Source of the DNA: Chlorobiaceae bacterium
GTDB taxonomy: Bacteria > Bacteroidota > Chlorobiia > Chlorobiales > Chlorobiaceae
NCBI GenBank assembly: GCA_037143555.1
Contig: JBAWYL010000011.1
Coordinates: 6,372 to 70,371, forward strand
Length of the DNA: 64,000 nucleotides
Direction: 5' to 3'
Part shown: positions 8,278 to 55,600 of the stretch, piece after piece
How the letters are laid out: each line of letters starts with the position of its first letter
Position numbering within the stretch: the first letter of the stretch is position 1
The notes under the pieces: model-generated
Seen by the model: the letters and a program-made list of their open reading frames with translations, nothing else
Told to the model about the DNA's origin: nothing
Databases searched by the model: none
Program-made: the position numbers and the translations under genes

Positions 8278-10944
8278 CTATTCGAGGGTGCTGTTCAGAT
8301 GCCAGTTATAGGGAAGGAAGCGGATATGCATGGATGAAAGATTTTTTTCAATCCACTCTTTTTTTTCTGGCGGAACATAGGGAAGCAGCGAAAGGACTGT
8401 ATCTCGATTACTGCTTCCAAAATCCTCTTTATACCAGCTGAAGATTGACGATATCCAGAGCGTATTGCTTTGGGTGTCAAGTTTTATTCCATTCCGGTTT
8501 ATAAAACTTCTTGCAGCGGTATCAAGCTGTTGATCAATAATTGCAGCATCATAGAATTCAACGGGAGGGCATGATGAGGCTGCGCAAACCAGTGCAAAGT
8601 GAATGCGGTAATCAAATGAACTGACGATGAAAAGCCTCCGTGGATCAGAGTTGGAAAAAGGCTTGAAGGGAAAGAATGGATGTGGACGGTTATGTCTCAG
8701 GATTCCATGCTCTATGTCATCGGGGGTAAACAGGAATCCGCCGATAGCATAGCTGATCCTGCCGAAAAAATTGATGATTTCAAGCACTGAACCGCGAATG
8801 CCGAATTCAATAACTCCGTGAATGATGAGAATATTGTAAATGTTGATCCAGAATGCTTTTTTTTCATCATCAGTTTGAAGCGTTTCCAGATTAAAGGTGT
8901 TAAGCAACTCCGCCAGCTTAAGGTATTTGTTGAACCCTTCAGATTTTTTGATTGCCTCATAATTGACCGTTCCTTTTTCAGCATTAAAATATGCACCCTG
9001 CAGGGAAACTAATCTCTGTTTAAGCCTGGCGCCGATATCTATGACGTCTGCTTGTTTAACGTCACTGCTTTCATTCAGCGTTACCTTTACCGGTATGAAA
9101 TTTCGCAGCCTCTCGCTGAATGAAGGTTTTTTTTCTTTTGTTTCTGTCACGTGAATGTTGGCAGACAAAATTGCACAAACCGCGTTTATATAGCCGATAT
9201 GACTGAAAGCCTGAGGGAAATTTCCAAGCATCTCCCGGTTTGCAGTGTCAAACTCTTCGGAAAAGAGACCGAGCTTGTTTGATGCAACGACCGTGTCTTT
9301 AAGCAGTTCAAGGGCCTCTTCAGTTTTTCCGGCAAGAGCAAGGCACTCCACCAGCCAAAAATTACACAGAACAAATCCTCCTTCATTTCCCTTAAGTCCA
9401 TCCTGAGAACGGTATCGCATCAGAAAACCCTTATTCATCAATTGCTTCCGGCATGCCTGGATTGTTCTTTCAATCCTTGGATCCCGCACAGGGAGAAATC
9501 CCGTAAGCGGGAGCTGCAGAAGACTCGCGTCAAGATCACTAGAACCGTAAGTCTGTACAAAACATTGAAGGGTATGGTTGTATCCATTGTCAATAATGTC
9601 ATCTTTGATCCGGTTCCGTTCCTTAAGCCAGAGCTCAAGAGGGGCATCAAAGCCAAAACGCCGGGCAATAGTTATTCCTCTGTCTAAAGCAACCCAGCAC
9701 ATGACTTTCGAATAGACAAAATGATGCGGTCCATTTCGCACTTCCCAGATCCCGTCATCCGGTTTTTGCCAGTTTTCAATAGCGAGGCCGCATATCTCTC
9801 TGAAAAAAGGCCAAAGCTTTTCATCAATTTTTCCTGCGTAATCCGACAATCGGAGCGCACAATCCATAACCTCACCATAAATATCCCACTGATGTTGTCG
9901 ATGAGCATCGTTACCTATTCTCACCGGTCGAGAATTGCGGTACCCTTTTAAATGATCGAGTTCTTTTTCCTCAAGGTGTTTAATGCCTTGCAGGGTATAC
10001 ATAATCTGCAAGTTCAGGCTTCCGTATTGACGATAAGTTGAATGCAGCCAGCAGAGATATGCATCAGCTTCAGTAACGTGACCAAGAGCAAAAAAAGCTT
10101 TCAGGGTAAAAGACGCATCTCTCAGCCAGCTGAAGCGGTAATCCCAGTTCCGTTCACCGCCAATAGTTTCCGGCAGGGAAGTCGTAGCGGCTGCGGCAAT
10201 AGCACCGGTTGGCTGAAAGGTCAAGAGTTTTAAAGCAAGCAAAGAACGATTGATCATTGAGGTGAACTCCCCAAGGTATGCACACCGTTCCCCAAAACAC
10301 CGAAAGACCCACTCCTGCCAGAATATTTTGTTTTCTTCAAACGGACAAGGCAGCTGTTCAGTTGTTTCCATGTACCCGTAGAAAAGATCAATATGAGCCT
10401 CTTCAAAAGTGTCAAGCGACAAGGAAAGCCTGAGCTCTCCCGCCCTGTTACTCATCAGGGTTCTCTTGTGGTTCTGAACGGTAAGTGTAAGAGTTTCCAG
10501 GCCGTTACGCATGATGAACCGGTTATCAGCTTCTTCAACAAGAGAGGGAGCTGCCGTTGCATACTCAGGTTTTGGTGCCAGCGTCAAGGTAAATGGCATG
10601 GAGCCACGGATGACTTTCAGACATCGGTGGATGCGCCGTTGTTTTGTATTGCCTGGCGCTGTGTTGTCTACCGGCATGAAGTCATAAAGAAGTGCTTCAG
10701 AGTGTTCTGTTGTGAATCTGCAGGAGAGGATGTTGGTGTTGGCAATATATTCCTGTTCGGAAGTGAAGGGTATTGATGGCTGCAGGCTGAAAAAACCCCC
10801 TTTTTCATCATCAAGCAGAGCTGCAAAGATTGTTGGAGAGTCGAGCCATGGAAGGGAGCAGTAGTCAATAGAGCCATCATTCGAAACAAGGGCGGCAGAA
10901 TGGAGATCCCCGATGAGTCCGTAATCGGCAATGCTTCTGTACAT
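8278..10944 (-). CDS. Glycoside hydrolase family 15 (glucoamylase/trehalase-like) fused to a C-terminal DUF547 domain
   Basis: GH15 motifs: YGLIGDLHSAALV, ERNWDYRFSWLRDAS, DDGIWEVR, LFSEEFD...GNFPQAFSH. DUF547 motifs: AFWINIYNILIIHGV, DDIEHGILR, RIHFALVCAASSCP. Confidence 0.9.
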   Translation of the reverse strand: MYRSIADYGLIGDLHSAALVSNDGSIDYCSLPWLDSPTIFAALLDDEKGGFFSLQPSIPFTSEQEYIANTNILSCRFTTEHSEALLYDFMPVDNTAPGNTKQRRIHRCLKVIRGSMPFTLTLAPKPEYATAAPSLVEEADNRFIMRNGLETLTLTVQNHKRTLMSNRAGELRLSLSLDTFEEAHIDLFYGYMETTEQLPCPFEENKIFWQEWVFRCFGERCAYLGEFTSMINRSLLALKLLTFQPTGAIAAAATTSLPETIGGERNWDYRFSWLRDASFTLKAFFALGHVTEADAYLCWLHSTYRQYGSLNLQIMYTLQGIKHLEEKELDHLKGYRNSRPVRIGNDAHRQHQWDIYGEVMDCALRLSDYAGKIDEKLWPFFREICGLAIENWQKPDDGIWEVRNGPHHFVYSKVMCWVALDRGITIARRFGFDAPLELWLKERNRIKDDIIDNGYNHTLQCFVQTYGSSDLDASLLQLPLTGFLPVRDPRIERTIQACRKQLMNKGFLMRYRSQDGLKGNEGGFVLCNFWLVECLALAGKTEEALELLKDTVVASNKLGLFSEEFDTANREMLGNFPQAFSHIGYINAVCAILSANIHVTETKEKKPSFSERLRNFIPVKVTLNESSDVKQADVIDIGARLKQRLVSLQGAYFNAEKGTVNYEAIKKSEGFNKYLKLAELLNTFNLETLQTDDEKKAFWINIYNILIIHGVIEFGIRGSVLEIINFFGRISYAIGGFLFTPDDIEHGILRHNRPHPFFPFKPFSNSDPRRLFIVSSFDYRIHFALVCAASSCPPVEFYDAAIIDQQLDTAARSFINRNGIKLDTQSNTLWISSIFSWYKEDFGSSNRDTVLSLLPYVPPEKKEWIEKNLSSMHIRFLPYNWHLNSTLE

Positions 10945-43889: not shown

Positions 43890-43951
43890 AGGTGATTCAA
43901 TAGGTAAACAAACAAAAATGAAAGAACTGCAATATGGTTAAAAGGTAAAAA

Positions 43952-43985
43952 TAAAAAAATGAAGGCATCATTATGATGCCTTCAT
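43952..43985 (-). terminator. Intrinsic terminator of the trehalose-related operon
   Basis: 12-bp stem atgaaggcatca-tta-tgatgccttcat, with an A-tract that reads as a U-tract on the minus strand. Confidence 0.85.
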
Positions 43986-43991
43986 AGCTGT

Positions 43992-46900
43992 TCAGACTGA
44001 AGCAGAGTGATAAGGAACTCCCTTTTTCAGCGTGAGATGTCTTCCGGCAATGCATGCAGGCGCTTCATCTCCTTCTGCTTCGATCAGAGTAATGATGATA
44101 TCGTCCGTTGCAATGGTAATGTTATAACGGTTTTTTCTGAAACAGATGCTCAAATTGAGTTTTTTCCAGTGAGCAGGTCTGTTTGGATGCACATTAAGTT
44201 TTTCATTGTAGAACGAAATTCCGGCAAAATAACGGATAACCGTATCCAGTGTTCCCGCCATGACTCCGCAATGAATACCCTCCTGTGTCGTGCCGCCCTG
44301 GGTGTCCTTGATATCGCTATTAAGAGCTTCTGAAAACCATTTCCAAGCCATTTCATGGCCATCATGCAGGTAGCTGGAGATGATACTGTGAACCACTTTG
44401 CTCAAGGTAGAACCATGACTTGTTCTTGGTTCGTAGAAAGCGTAGTTGTTTCTGACCAGAGTCATGTCATCAGGTATTTTATATCCGATCTTTTCCAGCA
44501 GTTCAGCAACTTCACCCGGCGATAGCGTATAGAACGTCATCAGTACATCGGGCTGTTTGGCAACCTTGTACATGTCCGGAGTATCTCCCTCGGCTTTCAG
44601 TATCCTGTCCATACGGTGGATATTGCCATATCTGGTACGGTAGTGAGCCCAGTCGAGCTCCTTGAGGGTTTTATAGCCATCGAACTGCTCAAGGATGCCA
44701 TTGCTGTCGACGAGGATATTCATGCTTCTGCTGATATCCTGCCAGTGCTTCAGTTCATCAAAACCGAGATGGATTTTTGAAATCAGGCGTCTGAGTACGG
44801 TCGGATCAATTTTTTCGCCGATTTCAGCAGCTTTTTCAAAAAGCCAGACAGCCATGATGTTGGTATAGGTATTATCTTTCAATCCCTCTTTACCGCTTCC
44901 GGGCAGAGTTTCATGAAATTCGTCCGGTCCCATCACACCCTCGATATGGTACTTCTGGGTATCAGCTGAATAGGTGGCAATTGACGCCCAGAATCTTGCG
45001 ATTTCAAACATCAGCTCCGCACCGTACTCATTAAGGAACACGGTATCATCAGTATCGTAGATGTAGCGCCAGGTATTATAGAAAACAGCTATCGAAACAT
45101 GTCTTTGAAGGCGGCTGAGGTCAGGACCCCATGAGCCGCTTTTTGGATTGAAGTGGAGAATCTGTGTATCCTCCCTGCCATCATCTGCAGTCTGCCATGG
45201 GAACATGGCGCCCTTATACCCGTTTTCACGAGCATACTCTCTCGCAGCGTCAAGCCGCCGGTAGCGGTACAGCAGGAGAGCTTTTGAAATTTCCGGAAAA
45301 TGGCGGTTGAAAAATGGCAGAATAAATATTTCATCCCAGAAAATATGGCCGCGATAAGCCTCACCGTTAAGGCCGCGGGCGGGCATGCCTGCGTCAATGG
45401 TTTGATTGTGTGGCGAAGCGGTGCACATCATGTGATAAGTATGCAGCCTTAGAGCTTTCTGGCTGAATCTGTCGCCTTCGATAGCAATGTCAGCTTTTTC
45501 CCATATTTTTTCCCATGCTTCAGAATGAGTCTTAAAGAGGGAATCAAAAGAGTCATTGCTTTCAAGAGAGTGTCGGGCGGCTCTTACCGGATCGGCATTT
45601 TTCTGGTCGAGTGTTGTATGTATAGAGGCAAGCTTTTCAATAGTGCAGCTTTTGTTTGGATTCAGCAACACTTTAAAGGACTCTGCAATATAGCGTGAAT
45701 CGCTTAACGACGAACGCTCTATGTTCAAAGGCTTTCCATGGCTCAACACCCTTGTTTTGGCTGCAGTTGCAATGCCGTAATGTGAAACATTGGTTTGTAC
45801 ATGAAGCACTATGATATCATTGTCGCAGCTGCTTTCGATGTGTTCAAGATGGTCGTTTGAGAGCTCGTTATAGCGCGCAACATTTTTATTTTTCACCCGC
45901 CCGTCGATTGACGACCTGAACTCGACTTCAGCACTGTAGTTGACCGGCTTAAGTGTAAATGTAAGCGCACACCGGTGCGGATCATCCATACTTATAAATC
46001 TGCGGGTGCGGATGCTTGATATTCTTCCGAGATTGTCCTGGATAACGATATCCCGCTCCATCAGACCGTGACGCAGATTCAGGTTCTGCTGGTAGCTGAG
46101 GATTTTCTGATCGAACGGATCAATGAACTCACCACCACCTATTCTGAACTCAATCGGGAGCCAGTTCGGCGCGTTGACAAAGTCATTGTTAAAAATTGTC
46201 TGGCCGTGAACTTCAGACGGGACTCTGTTAAAAATACCTGCAATATAGGTGCCGGGATAATGATAGTGGGAAATTGAAGAGCCCTCATATGCGCCTCTGA
46301 CCCCAAGATATCCGTTGCCTGATGATGTCAGGGTTTCGCGAAGTTTCTCATCTTTGGCGGAAAAATCGGTATAGGTCAGGTTCCAGCCCTCAAATTCAAG
46401 GCCATCGCTGAACCATCGTTCGATATCAGCAATAGTGATTTCAGCGAGATCCCTGACAACAACATCGGCGCCCTCCTCCCTCAGTTTTGATCCTTCGATG
46501 TCACGGGCAATACCAAGCACCATGCCGAAGTTGCCGCGAGACCCTGCCTGAACACCTGAAATGGCATCTTCAACAACAACACATTCATGAGGCTCCAGCC
46601 CGAGATTCTGGGCGGCTCTGACAAAAATATCAGGGTTGGGTTTTCCCTTTAAGCCGAGTTCGATAGAGACTTCGCCATCAACACGGGTTTCAAAAAGATG
46701 CTCAAGCTGGGCAAGCTGTAAAATAAGCTTGCAATTGCGGCTTGATGAAGCGATGCCGATTTTTATGCCTTTTTTTATGAGCTCATTGATGAGTTTAATG
46801 GAAGAGGTGTAGACCTCAGGACCTTCTTTAATGAGGATTTCAGAAAAAAGGTTGTTTTTACGGTTCCCAAGACCGCAGATAGTCTCCTTTTCAGGAATGT

Positions 46901-47156
46901 CGTCCAGTTCCCCGTAGGGCAGCTCAATTTCGCGCGACAAAAGAAAGCTTTTAACACCCTCCATGCGAGGCTTTCCGTCTACATATCGGTGATAGTCATG
47001 AGCAGGGTCAAAAGGAACAAAGGTTTCATTGTTGATTTCTGCATAATTTTTCAAAAAATAATTGAACATGGATTCCCAGGCGAGGCTGTGTACTTTTGCC
47101 GTGCCAGTGATAACTCCGTCAAGATCGAAAATTGCGCCTTTGAAGATGTTGCTCAT
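43992..47156 (-). CDS. Beta-phosphoglucomutase-family HAD domain fused to a GH65 phosphorylase
   Basis: N-terminal HAD motifs: [26 protein letters not shown]65 motifs: [40 protein letters not shown]. Confidence 0.92.
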
Positions 47157-47193
47157 ACCAATAGTTAAAAGATTATTATGAACCGGAACGTTG

Positions 47194-48456
47194 TCATAAA
47201 GAAAGCAGACCAAGAATGGTTAAAAGGATATCAGGGTAGGGTACCGTATAGCTGTTCGGGCATATCTCTTTAACCTGCTTTTTTAGCTGATCATCTCTTG
47301 TTACAAAAACTGCCCATACATCACCAAACATCTCAACTGCCTTTTTCAGCATGGGAATGTCTGAAGGTGTATCGCCGCACACAAGAGTCGAACTTTGTGA
47401 TGAATTTATTCCCAGTTTGCTGCATATAAAGGAAAGTCCGTCACCTTTGTCAAAATCTTTGATTGGCGCTTCTCCGGAAACCCCTTCGATGGTTAAAATG
47501 ATTTCAATATCAAGGCCGGTATCCTCAATTCTAAAATTCTTGCCGCTCGGATCTATCTCCCGGACGATGCCTTTCACCTTTTCAAGAAAAGCTGAAGATT
47601 CAGACTCTTTTATGGAGTGGCTTATATCCTGACGGGCAATAGTAGTCTGTCCAAATTTAATCTGTAAAGCCGATCCTATGAAATTGAATTTTTCAAAATT
47701 CGGATCCTGAAGAAGAACCAGCATCCTGTCATTTAACAGTCGTATCAGTTTCTGCTTGTTGTCTTCGATGGGAAAGCAGTTAAACTCATCATTCAGGTCG
47801 ATGAACTCTCTGCCCTTCGATCCGGCGTAGACAAACGTGTTGCTCGGATTGATGGAAACATTCAGTATGCCAAAGTCTTTCAGTGGAGCAGAGGTGATGA
47901 TAATAGGGTACTGGCAGCAGTTTTTTGCAAACCGGGTTAGAAAAACCGAGTTATAGATTGGCTGTACTGAAGAGCGGTATCGTCCGCAGTAGTTATTCGT
48001 AGTTCCGTCACGATCAGTGACAAAAGCATTAAACTTCTTGCCCCTTAGAAATTTCACGCCTTGGTTAACATAGACCCGGAAATCCGGAATAAACTTGGCA
48101 AGGTAATCGATGAATTTATCCTCGCCATACTCAAGATAGTAGATATCCTTTTGGAGTTCCCTGATTTCATACGTCAAATCAACCTCTATCTGCTTCATGC
48201 CGTCAAGACGAAGAAGCCTGTGCCCTGTATCATCGTCAATATAGATGGTTTCCAGAGAGTAAAGCGCGTTTTTAAGCGATTCTACACATGACTGACCGAC
48301 AACCCTCTGCTTGATGATGTTTCTGACGACAGGTTCTCGCAGTTCACGTGTTTCTGCTTTCAGCTGATAAAGTTCTTTAAGCGTCCGGATGTCCTGTAAC
48401 GTGATCGATGTGGAGCATGTGTTCAGCTGACGTTCTTTAAGAATACTCTCGTGCAT
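47194..48456 (-). CDS. Trehalose-6-phosphate phosphatase, nematode (Gob-1/T6PP)-type HAD with N-terminal helical domain
   Basis: HAD motif I TDRDGT, motif III/IV DKGDG and [10 protein letters not shown]. It is colinear with the nematode T6PP sequence as recalled (YC..Y....QP.Y....TRFA; GS.GRE). Confidence 0.8.
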
Positions 48457-48634
48457 GTGTTGCGGGTAAGGAAGTGAAGATGAAGTAATAAGTTTTTTAA
48501 TTTAAGGAAAAAATTTGCAAAAGCGTTAGAAAACTTTATAGAAATAATATCGATGATAGAGTAACAGTTTTTTGTCACTTTTTTCTTCTGTTGTGCTATG
48601 GCTTGCAATGTTCAGGCACTCGAAACCGCGATAC

Positions 48635-49273
48635 TCATGAAGAGAATCGTTCCTCCAAAAGCGCTACGATTTGCCGATGAATGACCGCTTCCGGCAGAAG
48701 GGCGTCCATGACGACAAATCGTTCTTTATGTTGTTGGATTATCTCAAGGTATCCCCGACGGACATTTCGATAGAACTCGGTTCCGGAACGCTCCATTCGG
48801 TCAAGCTCATCATCATCAAACGAGAGAGGAATTGATGTTTTGGCAAATTTTCTTCTCAAAGCTTCTTCTGGCTCTATATCAAGATAGACGGTGACGTCGG
48901 GAATAATGCCGCAGGTGGAAATTGAAATGATCGACTGGAGCACTGTAAGGTCGATCCCTCTTCCATAACCCTGATAGGCGGTAGTTGAGTCGAAAAACCG
49001 GTCAAGGATGACAGTTTTTCCATCAGCAATCGCCGGCAGGATTACTTTCTGGACAAGCTCTGCCCTGCATGCCGAAAAGAGGAGCAGTTCCCCGATAGGG
49101 CTTATGTCGAGCCGGCTTTCAAGAAGGATAGTACGGATATTTTCAGCCGTCTCAGTGCCTCCGGGTTCCCTTAACGTTAGTACTTCCCGGTTTTGGCTGG
49201 TCAGAGAGGTGACAAGCTTTTTTATCTGGGTTGACTTGCCTGCGCCGTCTATTCCTTCAAATGTTATGAGCAT
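48635..49273 (-). CDS. tmk: Thymidylate kinase
   Basis: [17 protein letters not shown] and [13 protein letters not shown] motifs. Confidence 0.96.
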
Positions 49274-51580: not shown

Positions 51581-52273
51581 TTATGAATTTCTACGGTTCA
51601 TGACGGTAAGGAAGTAGAGCAGCTGTGTAATGGCTTGAGCTGCAGCGGCAACATAGGTCAGAGCAGCAGCATCCAGCACGGCATTGACTCCTTTCATCTC
51701 GGCACTCGATACAATTCCTTGTGAAACAAGAAGTTCTTTAGCCCGGCGGCTTGCATCGAATTCTACAGGAAGAGTCACAAGAGCAAACAGTGCAGTTGCA
51801 CCAAACAGCAGGATGCCAGCCCATGCCAGGGTAGTTCCAAGTGTTCCGGCAAGGAACATGCCGGCCATAAAGACAATCGGGCCAAGATTGCTGCCGATAG
51901 AGACTGCCGGCACCATTATAGAGCGCAGCTGCAACGGCATATAGCCCGACTTATCCTGCAATGCGTGTCCGGCTTCGTGAGCAGCAACGCCGACCGAGGC
52001 AATGCTTGGCAGACTGAATACATCAGCACTTAATCGCAACGCTTTGCTGCGGGGATCATAGTGGTCTGAAAGCATGCCCTGAGCGGATTCTATAGTGACA
52101 GCACCGAGACCGCCACGCTCAAGAATACGCCTGGCAGCTTCGGCACCGTTAATGCCGGTCTGGGTGCGTACCTGCGAATATTTTTTGAATGCAGATTTTA
52201 CCTTGAACTGTGCCCATAAGCCAAGAACCATCGGAGGCAGGGCAAAAACAAAATACATTGGATCAAAATACAT
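51581..52273 (-). CDS. Neutral zinc metallopeptidase (YugP family)
   Basis: DHYDPRSKALRLS, VAAHEAGHALQ (HExxH), LPVEFDASRRA and AAALTYVAAA motifs. Confidence 0.92.
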   Translation of the reverse strand: MYFDPMYFVFALPPMVLGLWAQFKVKSAFKKYSQVRTQTGINGAEAARRILERGGLGAVTIESAQGMLSDHYDPRSKALRLSADVFSLPSIASVGVAAHEAGHALQDKSGYMPLQLRSIMVPAVSIGSNLGPIVFMAGMFLAGTLGTTLAWAGILLFGATALFALVTLPVEFDASRRAKELLVSQGIVSSAEMKGVNAVLDAAALTYVAAAAQAITQLLYFLTVMNRRNS

Positions 52274-52420
52274 ATCAGTAAAGATTATCGTTATCGTAAG
52301 TATCGTAAGTACAGGACTAAAACAAGAAACCTGTAAAATAAGTTTTCTCAATTATAAATGAAGATACATTCGTCTGCGGACATATAATACACTCAATTGT
52401 AACATTATAGCTGAAAAATC

Positions 52421-52436
52421 AAAACGATATCGTTTT
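52421..52436. promoter_or_regulatory. Perfect 16-bp palindrome, candidate operator
   Basis: AAAACGATATCGTTTT lies between two divergent genes. Confidence 0.45.
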
Positions 52437-52615
52437 TTTTGCGTATAAAATTTTCATTCTGCCCTGTAAAGGTTTTTATTACAGATTCGATATGTTCTGT
52501 TGAGTTTTTACATTATGAATTGCATTGCTCTGTATCGATAAACGATCAGTCCGGATGAGTCAGCTTGACGTCGACCATAGAAATATATATCACATTGCAT
52601 TAGAGAAGGGATTTT

Positions 52616-55600
52616 ATGACGAACAACCAGAGCGAAAATAAACAGAGGCTCCAACTCGACAACCTGCTGTTGAGTGCTGAACAGGAGCAGCTTTTCAGCA
52701 AAACAGTGGTTGATACTATACATGGCTCATTTTTCATGCTTGATGAAAATGCCCGATTTGTCAGGTGGAACGCATACCTGCGTGATAAAATAACAGGGAA
52801 AACCGATAGTGAAATGGCGGGTGTTGATGCAATATCGTTTATTCATCCTGATGACCGTCCGCTTATACATCAAAAAATAGCAAATGTACTCAATACTGGA
52901 GTTACAGAGATAGCTGAATTGAGAGTGCTTCTTCACGGAGGGCCAAAAACAAGTTGGCGACTGATTACCGGTAGAAGGATAATCATCGATGGTAAGACTT
53001 TTCTTGTCGGTATGGGTTTTGATATTACTGATCGCAAGCATGCCGAGGACGAGCTTTGCCGACTGAATCGTGTAGTCCTTGCAACCAGCAATTGCAATCA
53101 CGCACTGATTCATACTTTTGACGAAATGGAATTGTTGCAAAAAATCTGCAGCATCATCGTTGAAACAGGCGGTTACCGGATGGCATGGGTCGGATATGCT
53201 GTTCAGGATAAGTCAAAAAGCATATCTCCGGTTGCTCAAGCAGGTTTTGAGAACGGTTACCTTGAAACACTGAAGATCTCCTGGGGAGAAGGCCCGTTAG
53301 GCGTCGGACCTGCTGGAACTGCAATTCGTACTGCTCAACCATGTTTTACGCCTGATATTAAGAGCGACCCGCGGTTTGAATTATGGCGTCATGAAGCCAT
53401 AAAGAGAGATTATGCTTCCGTTTACAGTATTCCCTTGATGGTCGACGAAATCGCTGTTGGCGCATTAACTATATATTCCGAGTCGCCGGATGCTTTTAAT
53501 GCTAAGGAAGTGGCTCTGCTTACAGCAATGGCCGACAACCTGTCGTTTGGAATCACGACACTGCGAAATCGGGTGTCGCGTGAGCTGGCAGAGAGCTTGC
53601 TGACGCGAAGCGAAAAATGTTTCAGGACGCTTTTTGAACAGCATTCGGCAATCAAGTTTCTTCTTGACCCCGATACCGGGCATATTATTGATGCCAACAA
53701 GGCGGCAGCGGATTTTTACGGATGGTCAACTGAAGAACTCAGGCAGATGAACATACGACAAATAAACCCCTGCTCATCTGAAGTCATGCACGACACTTTT
53801 GAAAAAGTAAGGTTTTCAAAGCAACACCGGTTTTTATTTAAACACAACCGGGCTGATGGTTCTTTTCGTGATGTCGAGATACACAGTAATTTAATTAAGC
53901 TTGAGGATAAAGATGTTCTTTATGCGATTGTCCATGATAACACCGAACGCCGGCGCTTCGAATTACTCAATGCATTCCGTATTCGCCTTCTGGATATAGC
54001 TGAGACCAGTTCTGTTGAAACATTGCTGAAAATTACCCTTGAAGAAGCCGAAAGAATAACAGGCAGTTCAATCGGGTTTTTCCATATTCTCGATGATGAC
54101 CACAGTTCGATTTCAAACCGGACATGGTCAGCCGGCACTATTAAGGCAATTGGCAAGGGGAGAGAAAGTGGCAGGAAGTTTAACATGAAAGAGAGTGAAT
54201 TATTGTCAGATACGGTAAGGGAGCAAAGAGCGCTGATATGCAACGATGAATCTCCGGATACCTTTTACCGTGTCACCACTGACGGTTATAGAGAGGTCAA
54301 GCGAGAAGTGAGTGTGCCGGTGAAGCGCGGAGATACTGTTTTGGCAGTTCTGGTGTTAGGAAACAAGCCTGACAAATATACTGAAGATGACATCACCTTG
54401 TTGGAATCGCTCGCCGATACAGCATGGGATATAGTTGCCCGCAAACGGTCAGAGCTTTCAGAACAGGGCATACGGGAAGCATTGATCCAATCCCAGAAAA
54501 TGGAGCTGATAGGTCAGCTTGCCGGAGGCATAGCCCATGATTTAAACAATATGCTCGGGGTGATTATCGGTAACGTGGAAATGGCCATGGATCGAGAAGA
54601 AATTCAAGAGCCGCTGCAGCGTAATTTCAAGGACATTCTAAATGCTACTGAACACTCCGCTAATCTGACCAGGCAACTGCTTGCTTTTGCCCGGAAGGAG
54701 CCGGTGATGCCGATAGTTCTCGATCTCAGCACAATGATTGAAAAGATGCTCTCAATGCTCCGCCGGCTGATTGGAGAAAATATTTCAGTTGTTTGGGTTC
54801 CTGAAAGTCATCCAGCTCTGGTAAAAGTAGATCCATCGCAGATCGACCAGGTTCTTGTCAACCTGTGTCTTAACTCCCGTGACGCCATTGGAGGCATCGG
54901 TCAAATTACTATCGAAACCACGATAACAACCGTTAAAAAGAACGATTGTACCACGCTTTCTTCCCGCAAGATACCCGGTGAGTATGTCATGCTTTCTGTT
55001 ACGGACAACGGTTGTGGTATTGAAAAAGAGCATCAGCCCCATATTTTCGAGCCATTTTTCACCACAAAGGAAAAAGGAAAAGGGATTGGTTTAGGGCTCT
55101 CGACCGTTTATGGAATCGTCAAACAGAACAACGGTTTTATTGAGTTTCAGAGCGAGCTGAACAAAGGAACCGCCTTTAAAATTTATCTTCCTCGCCATAG
55201 AGGCTATACAGATCCTGATGAGAGTGAGCAGCCGGAACTGCCGGTCAAGCTGGCCAGGGAAACAATTCTTCTTGTTGAAGACGAACCCGAAATGCTTCAT
55301 CTCAGCCAGCGAATGCTTGAAAAACGCGGTTACATGGTGCTTTCGGCCTCTAAACCCGATGAAGCTATCAAACTGGCGCAAAAACACAATGGTGGTATTG
55401 ACCTGCTTCTGACTGACGTGGTTATGCCCGGGATGAACGGATGTGATCTTTCAAAAAAGCTTCAGTCCGCCATTCCGCAGCTTAAAACACTCTTTATGTC
55501 TGGATACACTACCGATGTCTTTTTACCATATGACGAACCCGATGAGCGAATCCATTTTATCCAGAAGCCATTCTCTTTCAAATCACTGATGATGACGGTT

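Follow-up and report, generated by a model that had tools for sequence, protein, structure and literature searches.

How could a green sulfur bacterium make trehalose without OtsA, the synthase that uses a nucleotide sugar? Salt-stressed green sulfur bacteria reportedly build up trehalose (Welsh and Herbert 1993, as cited in PMC7824335), and the question is raised by a two-gene locus at positions 43992–48456 of a 64,000-nt stretch of DNA (the whole of which we call the window; assembly GCA_037143555.1, contig JBAWYL010000011.1) from the genome of a Chlorobiaceae bacterium (2.46 Mb, 97.5% complete). Both genes lie on the minus strand. The upstream one, gene A, encodes a homologue of the nematode-type trehalose-6-phosphate (T6P) phosphatases, and the downstream one, gene B, a β-phosphoglucomutase (β-PGM)-like domain fused to a phosphorylase of glycoside hydrolase family 65 (GH65). 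Judging from genomic evidence, we consider it probable that the two genes form an operon for trehalose synthesis that works without a nucleotide sugar.

In the proposed pathway the N-terminal β-PGM domain of the gene B protein would convert glucose-6-phosphate (G6P) to β-glucose-1-phosphate (β-G1P), and the GH65 domain, acting in the synthetic direction, would combine β-G1P with G6P to give α,α-trehalose-6-phosphate and inorganic phosphate (Pi). The gene A phosphatase would then convert T6P to trehalose and Pi, rendering the sequence irreversible (net: 2 G6P + H2O → trehalose + 2 Pi). The β-PGM and phosphorylase steps are freely reversible. In vitro, T6P has been obtained in 93% yield with a T6P phosphorylase working towards synthesis (PMC13121652). 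The trehalose formed would serve green sulfur bacteria as an osmolyte, and could also feed the TreS-maltokinase/GlgE route to α-glucan. What each enzyme acts on, which way flux runs and what the pathway does for the cell are inferred from domains, motifs, the linkage of the genes and searches that found no other de novo route.

Predicted activities of the two proteins

The features of gene A are as follows.

47194..48456, minus strand: gene A, nematode-type trehalose-6-phosphate phosphatase homologue, 420 amino acids (aa) (Pfam, PDB sequence match, AlphaFold model)
48085..48384, minus strand: T6PP_N helical-bundle (MIT-like) domain, residues 25–124 (Pfam; helices in the model; within the full-length 4ofz alignment)
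47224..48024, minus strand: T6PP_C HAD phosphatase core and cap, residues 145–411 (Pfam, motifs)
48001–48018, minus strand: TDRDGT motif, with the Asp nucleophile D148 and D150
47359–47379, minus strand: GDTPSD motif

A Pfam scan found T6PP_N (PF18572; 75.2 bits against a cut-off of 25, 4e-21) followed by T6PP_C (PF21141; 284.5 bits against 26.7, 1e-84, profile positions 1–267 of 267), in this order over the full length of the protein, with nothing else of note and no glycosyltransferase domain. The only solved relatives found by sequence are the Brugia malayi T6P phosphatase (T6PP) entries, with 4ofz at 2e-35. An AlphaFold model built from 40 homologues (predicted local distance difference test score, pLDDT, 91.6; predicted template modelling score, pTM, 0.90) matches the three-domain fold of helical bundle, Rossmann core and C2B cap. 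The entry 4ofz again comes first among the fold matches of the model (template modelling, TM, score 0.82/0.82, E 5e-29), over the full length including the helical bundle, and matches 2–10, which come from fungi, Mycobacterium, Burkholderia and Salmonella, are T6P phosphatases without exception. The HAD catalytic residues D148, D150, K337, D362 and D366 are invariant in the 40 homologues, and D148 and D150 align with D213 and D215 of the Brugia enzyme. We also compared the ten Brugia residues probed by mutagenesis (PMC4081830) with about 120 microbial homologues. Seven of the ten are kept in gene A (D213, D215, Y221, Q332, K334, T339 and E384), and three are replaced (D336 by Gly, R337 by Gln and E386 by Ile). 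The fold and catalytic machinery predicted for gene A thus fit a T6P phosphatase, with a sugar pocket that is not identical to that of Brugia.

One member of the family (P0341) carries a fragment of GT20, the OtsA-type glycosyltransferase family, fused ahead of T6PP_N and T6PP_C, which ties these phosphatases to T6P outside nematodes too. In 2014 the N-terminal domain of T6PP was described as occurring only in nematodes and mycobacteria (PMC4081830); here, 417 prokaryotic species-representative genomes contain a relative of the gene A phosphatase. In NCBI the Chlorobiaceae protein (P0128, P0137, P0155 and others) is labelled 'trehalose 6-phosphate synthase', a name that is wrong, since the homologues of gene A have no glycosyltransferase domain. 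A second nematode-type phosphatase of 445–454 aa is present in one Chlorobiaceae genus (16 of 16 genomes sampled; L004–L015). At one locus of this copy (L033; G050:C1, 8142–9479) there is no adjacent GH65 gene, and its neighbours, judged from N-terminal sequence alone, are transporter-like open reading frames (ORFs) and a hemL-like ORF.

Gene B has the following features.

43992..47156, minus strand: gene B, predicted β-phosphoglucomutase fused to a GH65 enzyme of T6P-phosphorylase type, 1054 aa
46422..47144, minus strand: β-PGM-like HAD domain, residues 5–245, with FDLDG (D11, D13), GKPR (R64), SSSRN, KGKP and VEDA (TIGR02009, PDB match, motifs)
44028..46376, minus strand: GH65 phosphorylase, residues 261–1043, N-terminal, central and C-terminal domains (Pfam, PDB match, tree, motif, loops)
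44910–44930, minus strand: GPDEFHE, catalytic, residue 743
44547–44558, minus strand: KQPD, residue 867
44400–44417, minus strand: HGSTLS, residue 914
45186–45203, minus strand: FPWQTA, specificity positions 392 and 394

Residues 5–245 of the gene B protein form a HAD-IA domain, which passes the NCBIfam subfamily model for β-PGM/YqaB (TIGR02009; 159.6 bits, cut-off 153.35). By far its best solved match (2e-64) is 8h5s, a PDB deposit titled 'Beta-phosphoglucomutase', with which it also shares the insert FVPFDPA..DYH.YVDGK.R. The residues that we take to be catalytic or substrate-binding in the β-PGM of Lactococcus lactis (D8, D10, T16, H20, R49, S114, S116, K117, N118, K145, E169 and D170) are all identical in gene B except K117, which is Arg; the equivalent of R49 was placed via an alignment with 3nas. 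The HAD domain is β-PGM-like, and mutase activity is predicted for it.

The N-terminal, central and C-terminal domains of GH65 are all present in the remainder of the protein (Pfam, 6e-68, 4e-119 and 8e-9, respectively). Among solved GH65 structures, 9lb6 scores highest (492 bits); kojibiose phosphorylase reaches 368 bits, maltose phosphorylase 250 and glucosylglycerol phosphorylase 216. The PDB title of 9lb6 is 'trehalose-6-phosphate hydrolase'; to judge from the citation of the Feng 2025 structural paper in PMC13121652, to which we link the entry, it is most likely a T6P phosphorylase. In a phylogenetic tree, in which 9lb6 is the one characterized T6P phosphorylase and sits on a long branch, all β-PGM/GH65 fusions and 9lb6 form a single clade (support 100/99), apart from the kojibiose, maltose and glucosylglycerol enzymes.

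Specificity was further assessed at the six positions of De Beul 2021 (64, 392, 394, 402, 416 and 585 in CsKP numbering), at which the experimentally verified T6P phosphorylase motif of GH65 subgroup 22 is DQGQDE (PMC8537180). This is also the motif of 9lb6, and gene B reads DQAQDE, identical at five of the six positions. The pattern DQ[A/G/S/C]QD[E/D] is found in 31 of 32 sampled fusions (the remaining one reads DQAPDE), and differs from the EEAPxx of the kojibiose enzymes, the maltose and glucosylglycerol enzymes being also quite different. In addition, gene B and 9lb6 have in common loops that are not found in enzymes of other specificities (..QRH.., an eight-residue insert after GPDEFHE, and HGSTLS). 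Sequence comparison therefore supports a GH65 domain of the T6P-phosphorylase type, as opposed to the maltose, kojibiose or glucosylglycerol type. We rejected a trehalose phosphorylase, with glucose as the acceptor, because the motif and the tree favour T6P phosphorylases and the partner phosphatase would lack a substrate.

Two other GH65 proteins were seen in the family. A stand-alone enzyme of 787 aa, encoded in the same genome next to dnaE (contig C3, ~52202–54565; L035:8203–10566, minus strand) and present in most Chlorobiaceae sampled, clusters with kojibiose phosphorylase (97/96) and has the motif EEAPYN. About ten Chlorobium genomes contain a second β-PGM/GH65 fusion (43% identical, motif DQGQDE) with no phosphatase alongside. 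At one such locus (L034; G053:C51, 4996–8199, minus strand) it immediately follows the genes for acetate kinase and phosphoketolase, on their downstream side, and adjoins a two-component system, a catabolic-looking setting that contrasts with that of the phosphatase-linked copy.

The surroundings of the two genes are listed here.

48635–49273: tmk, a thymidylate kinase-like ORF, upstream of gene A
48457..48634, minus strand: presumed promoter region, an AT-rich spacer of 178 nt between tmk and gene A (sequence read; promoter inferred)
47157..47193, minus strand: intergenic spacer, 37 nt
43949..43985, minus strand: intrinsic terminator, a 12-bp stem (ATGAAGGCATCA / TGATGCCTTCAT) with a 3-nt loop, then TTTTTTTATTT

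The longest open frame of gene B begins at a TTG (47213). We prefer the ATG at 47156, since the resulting 1054 aa fit homologues of 1050–1057 aa at 100% coverage; this start leaves a gap of exactly 37 nt to gene A. No terminator-like site was found between the genes, and a terminator hairpin lies at 43985–43959 (minus strand), 6 nt past the stop codon of gene B, with a run of seven T (TTTTTTTATTT) after the stem-loop. A consensus scan, which covered the sigma-70 type alone, found no sigma-70-like promoter in the spacer upstream of gene A. A queA-like ORF lies downstream of gene B.

A preliminary description of the locus had read it as two co-oriented genes 37 nt apart followed by one strong terminator, the first for a nematode-type HAD phosphatase without a glycosyltransferase domain, and the second for a β-PGM HAD domain fused to a complete GH65 enzyme with GPDEFHE, KQPD and HGSTLS. 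The coordinates and hairpin, the Pfam domains of gene A with its match to the Brugia fold, and the domains and motifs of gene B all agree with this. The same holds for the β-PGM-like character of the HAD domain, given the match to 8h5s and the kept catalytic residues, and for the assignment of the GH65 domain to the T6P phosphorylases, given its best match, tree position, motif and loops.

Conservation of the pair and its fusion into single proteins

Among the Chlorobiaceae genomes sampled, the phosphatase is present in 105 of 106 and the fusion in all 106, and the two are adjacent and in the same order in every genome where both were listed. Neither was found in other families of the same order (0/14 for each), nor was the phosphatase found among the other genomes of the phylum sample (0/237). 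This distribution suggests that the two genes entered the lineage at the base of the Chlorobiaceae.

Outside the family, we counted gene order at the best 80 loci from the 417 genomes with a relative of the phosphatase; 77 of these loci have readable downstream sequence. A HAD-GH65 gene lies immediately downstream, on the same strand, in 72 of these 77 informative loci of other phyla, a count that overstates the number of separate events, as related genomes are not independent. The 80 loci belong mostly to Desulfobacterota, and also to Acidobacteriota, Myxococcota, Elusimicrobiota, Actinomycetota, a gammaproteobacterium, and cultured strains of Pseudodesulfovibrio and Desulfovibrio. On an archaeal contig, the phosphatase and fusion genes overlap by 4 nt. 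The co-conservation on which the preliminary description had made its proposal depend is thus borne out within the Chlorobiaceae and beyond. We rejected chance adjacency, the order being kept across all sampled Chlorobiaceae that have both genes and at 72 of the 77 loci of other phyla.

The three predicted activities also occur in one polypeptide. Diplonema papillatum, a member of a genus reported to be rich in trehalose (PMC8611851), has a single 1939-aa protein with the order HAD-GH65-T6PP_N-T6PP_C, named 'trehalose 6-phosphate phosphorylase' in NCBI. The same family of long fusions is found in Flectonema, Artemidia and a cluster that contains Euglena, although no HAD domain was detected in some of them. 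A Polyangiaceae bacterium has one protein with the order T6PP-HAD-GH65. The GH65 parts of these three-domain fusions fall within the clade of 9lb6 and the two-domain fusions, and have the same specificity motif.

In the fusion of Artemidia motanka (P0354) the nucleophilic Asp of the phosphatase is replaced by Ser, and the ten checked positions read S, D, R, Q, R, G, L, V, A and S, changes that may have left its phosphatase domain inactive. Two further long proteins from eukaryotic transcriptomes (P0359 and P0366, one from the dinoflagellate Biecheleria) have a weak GH65 N-terminal domain and T6PP_C, with no recognizable GH65 catalytic domain.

Direction of the pathway and alternative explanations

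The preliminary description had named otsA, treYZ and treS as genes to look for elsewhere in the genome, and trehalose made by OtsA as the case that would speak against the proposal. OtsA (GT20, PF00982) has no match in this genome, in 106 Chlorobiaceae (0/106) or, above the cut-off, in 121 genomes of the class. Also not found in this genome and in the 61 Chlorobiaceae searched (0/61 in each case) were the OtsB-type phosphatase (PF02358), TreY (none above the cut-off in this genome) and TreT. TreS, however, is present, and so stays an alternative source of trehalose. No match to EIIC of the phosphotransferase system (PTS; PF02378) was found in this 97.5%-complete genome, which leaves a catabolic route of the Lactococcus type without an entry point, with no imported T6P to break down.

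The TreS in question is part of a TreS-maltokinase fusion of 1100 aa, encoded directly after GlgE (GlgE_dom_N_S and GLGE_C) on another contig of the same genome (C4, 8806–14247); together they constitute the GlgE α-glucan pathway. In mycobacteria such an arrangement converts trehalose to α-glucan, and OtsAB and TreYZ are the only suppliers of trehalose that a 2024 review names for this pathway (PMC11046441). GlgC (TIGR02091) has no match at the curated cut-off in the genome (best 52.7 against 424.9 bits). A GlgA-like gene of family GT5 lies at C4:113690–114388. The window itself encodes, at 8278–10944 (minus strand), an 888-aa GH15-DUF547 fusion that also has a trehalase-like N-terminal domain (TREH_N, 8e-13). 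This protein may, by its domains, be a trehalase of the GH15 type, which would complete a set for making and breaking trehalose in this genome.

Several points weigh against a synthetic, T6P-based route. The equilibrium of β-PGM favours G6P, so that, on established biochemistry, flux would depend on the pull of the phosphatase. The HAD domain of gene B scores under the cut-off of the NCBIfam equivalog model for β-PGM (TIGR01990; 114.4 against 189.4 bits), and the wider HAD subfamily to which it belongs includes sugar phosphatases. In pairwise alignment the GH65 domain is 34.5% identical to 9lb6 and 32.6% to kojibiose phosphorylase, and it has Ala instead of Gly at specificity position 394. The Brugia residues D336, R337 and E386, which take part in catalysis or binding, correspond to Gly, to Gln or Glu, and to a variable residue throughout the microbial clade. 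The pairing has exceptions as well. Five of the 77 phosphatase loci have no fusion nearby, their neighbours being unrelated genes (kinases, regulators, an esterase) and not OtsA, which neither helps nor hurts, and on the chromosome of Desulfosarcina sp. BuS5 (L016) the fusion, which follows an Rnf operon, has no phosphatase partner within 6 kb. Finally, maltose could be turned into trehalose by TreS, which scores over its curated cut-off in this genome as well as in 55 of 61 Chlorobiaceae.

Some of these points would suit a phosphorylase that makes another phosphorylated α-glucoside (from an acceptor such as glycerol-3-phosphate, 3-phosphoglycerate or fructose-6-phosphate), from which the phosphatase would free a product other than trehalose. 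Such a difference in substrate would be in keeping with the modest identity of the GH65 domain to the solved T6P phosphorylase, with the Ala, Ser or Cys that the fusions have at position 394 in place of Gly, and with the systematic departure of the microbial phosphatases from the Brugia enzyme at the three positions above. We nevertheless regard it as unlikely, because five of the six specificity positions and all the clade-specific loops agree with T6P phosphorylases and, by fold, the phosphatase has only T6P phosphatases among its closest matches. Furthermore, it is trehalose that is reported to accumulate, in green sulfur bacteria (as cited in PMC7824335) and in Diplonema (PMC8611851), and other de novo routes to it were not found.

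The presence of TreS bears on a second explanation, in which TreS would make trehalose from glycogen-derived maltose, and the operon would control the pools of T6P and β-G1P or recycle β-G1P from a GH65 enzyme of the kojibiose phosphorylase type. TreS is encoded in most of the relatives, as noted, and the stand-alone GH65 with the kojibiose motif EEAPYN would yield β-G1P. We consider this explanation, too, to have little chance of being correct. TreS here is fused to maltokinase beside GlgE, an arrangement that in mycobacteria consumes trehalose towards glucan (PMC11046441), recycling of β-G1P requires neither a T6P phosphatase nor a phosphorylase of the T6P type, and the three-domain fusions argue for three activities in one pathway.

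A catabolic module like that of Lactococcus lactis, with T6P phosphorolysed to yield two G6P and the phosphatase guarding against a toxic build-up of T6P, is very improbable. In its favour, catabolism is the sole physiologically established role of a T6P phosphorylase and β-PGM pair (Andersson 2001, as summarized in PMC12125463), and some Chlorobium genomes have the paralogous phosphatase-less fusion beside phosphoketolase and acetate kinase genes. Against it, nothing that would deliver T6P was found, neither a PTS EIIC in this genome nor an OtsA here or among the 106 relatives, and a phosphatase that removes the pathway's own substrate would be unlikely to stay translationally linked or fused to the phosphorylase across bacteria, archaea and eukaryotes.

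Relation to known systems and significance

The trePP-pgmB system of Lactococcus lactis for trehalose utilization (EC 2.4.1.216 and EC 5.4.2.6) draws on the two enzyme families that are fused in gene B and on identical reversible reactions (T6P + Pi ↔ β-G1P + G6P, and β-G1P ↔ G6P). There, however, the enzymes are separate proteins that catabolize T6P imported by the PTS, whereas here they form one fused polypeptide and are accompanied by a T6P phosphatase; the lack of PTS EIIC and OtsA in this genome implies the reverse, synthetic direction. With OtsA/OtsB the proposed pathway shares the intermediate T6P and a HAD phosphatase for the last, irreversible step, but the GT20 synthase uses UDP- or ADP-glucose, while the GH65 phosphorylase would use β-G1P, and the OtsB-type phosphatases (PF02358) and that of gene A (PF21141) are unrelated by Pfam.

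Gene A has the two-domain T6PP_N and T6PP_C architecture of Brugia malayi T6PP and Caenorhabditis elegans GOB-1, and the Brugia fold, as described above. It is 26% identical to the Brugia enzyme in a structural alignment, with D336, R337 and E386 replaced, and its partner is a phosphorylase, whereas the partner of the Brugia and C. elegans type is a GT20 synthase. OtsB1 of Mycobacterium tuberculosis (Rv2006) is listed as a 1327-aa protein of unknown function (PMC11046441). A further parallel is offered by in vitro cascades for T6P (Taguchi 2020; PMC13121652), in which a phosphorylase likewise works in the synthetic direction and β-PGM supplies one of its substrates. Those cascades are man-made, start from maltose and end at T6P; the route proposed here would be natural, start from G6P and include a phosphatase.

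The enzyme families are thus already known, as is the chemistry, from catabolism in Lactococcus and from the man-made cascades. What appears to be undescribed in the searchable literature is that the phosphorylase would serve synthesis in nature, that it is coupled to a T6P phosphatase, and that it is apparently the standard route of a whole bacterial family. The preliminary description had not recognized the route among the commonly listed trehalose pathways, and published accounts concur: T6P phosphorylase figures in a 2025 review as a degradation route only (PMC12125463), a 2026 paper terms phosphorylase-based synthesis of T6P 'new-to-nature' (PMC13121652), and the words 'fusion' and 'fused' are absent from the GH65 review.

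A broader version of the proposal, which we put forward tentatively as possible rather than probable, is that green sulfur bacteria make trehalose de novo by this operon alone, and that it also supplies TreS-maltokinase and GlgE (G6P → T6P → trehalose → maltose → maltose-1-phosphate → α-glucan). Both the osmolyte and at least part of the storage glucan would then be made without a nucleotide sugar, and diplonemids and euglenids would have the fused version as their trehalose synthase.

If the operon does synthesize trehalose, it would represent a further natural route beside the OtsAB, TreYZ, TreS, TreT and TreP pathways of reviews, and one cheaper than OtsAB, as no UTP or ATP would be spent on sugar activation. 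It would also be a third possible feeder of the GlgE pathway beyond OtsAB and TreYZ. A function would be provided for a widespread gene pair of sulfate reducers and archaea and for the giant fusion proteins of abundant marine protists, and the route would explain how the whole family of green sulfur bacteria makes the trehalose that it accumulates without OtsA.

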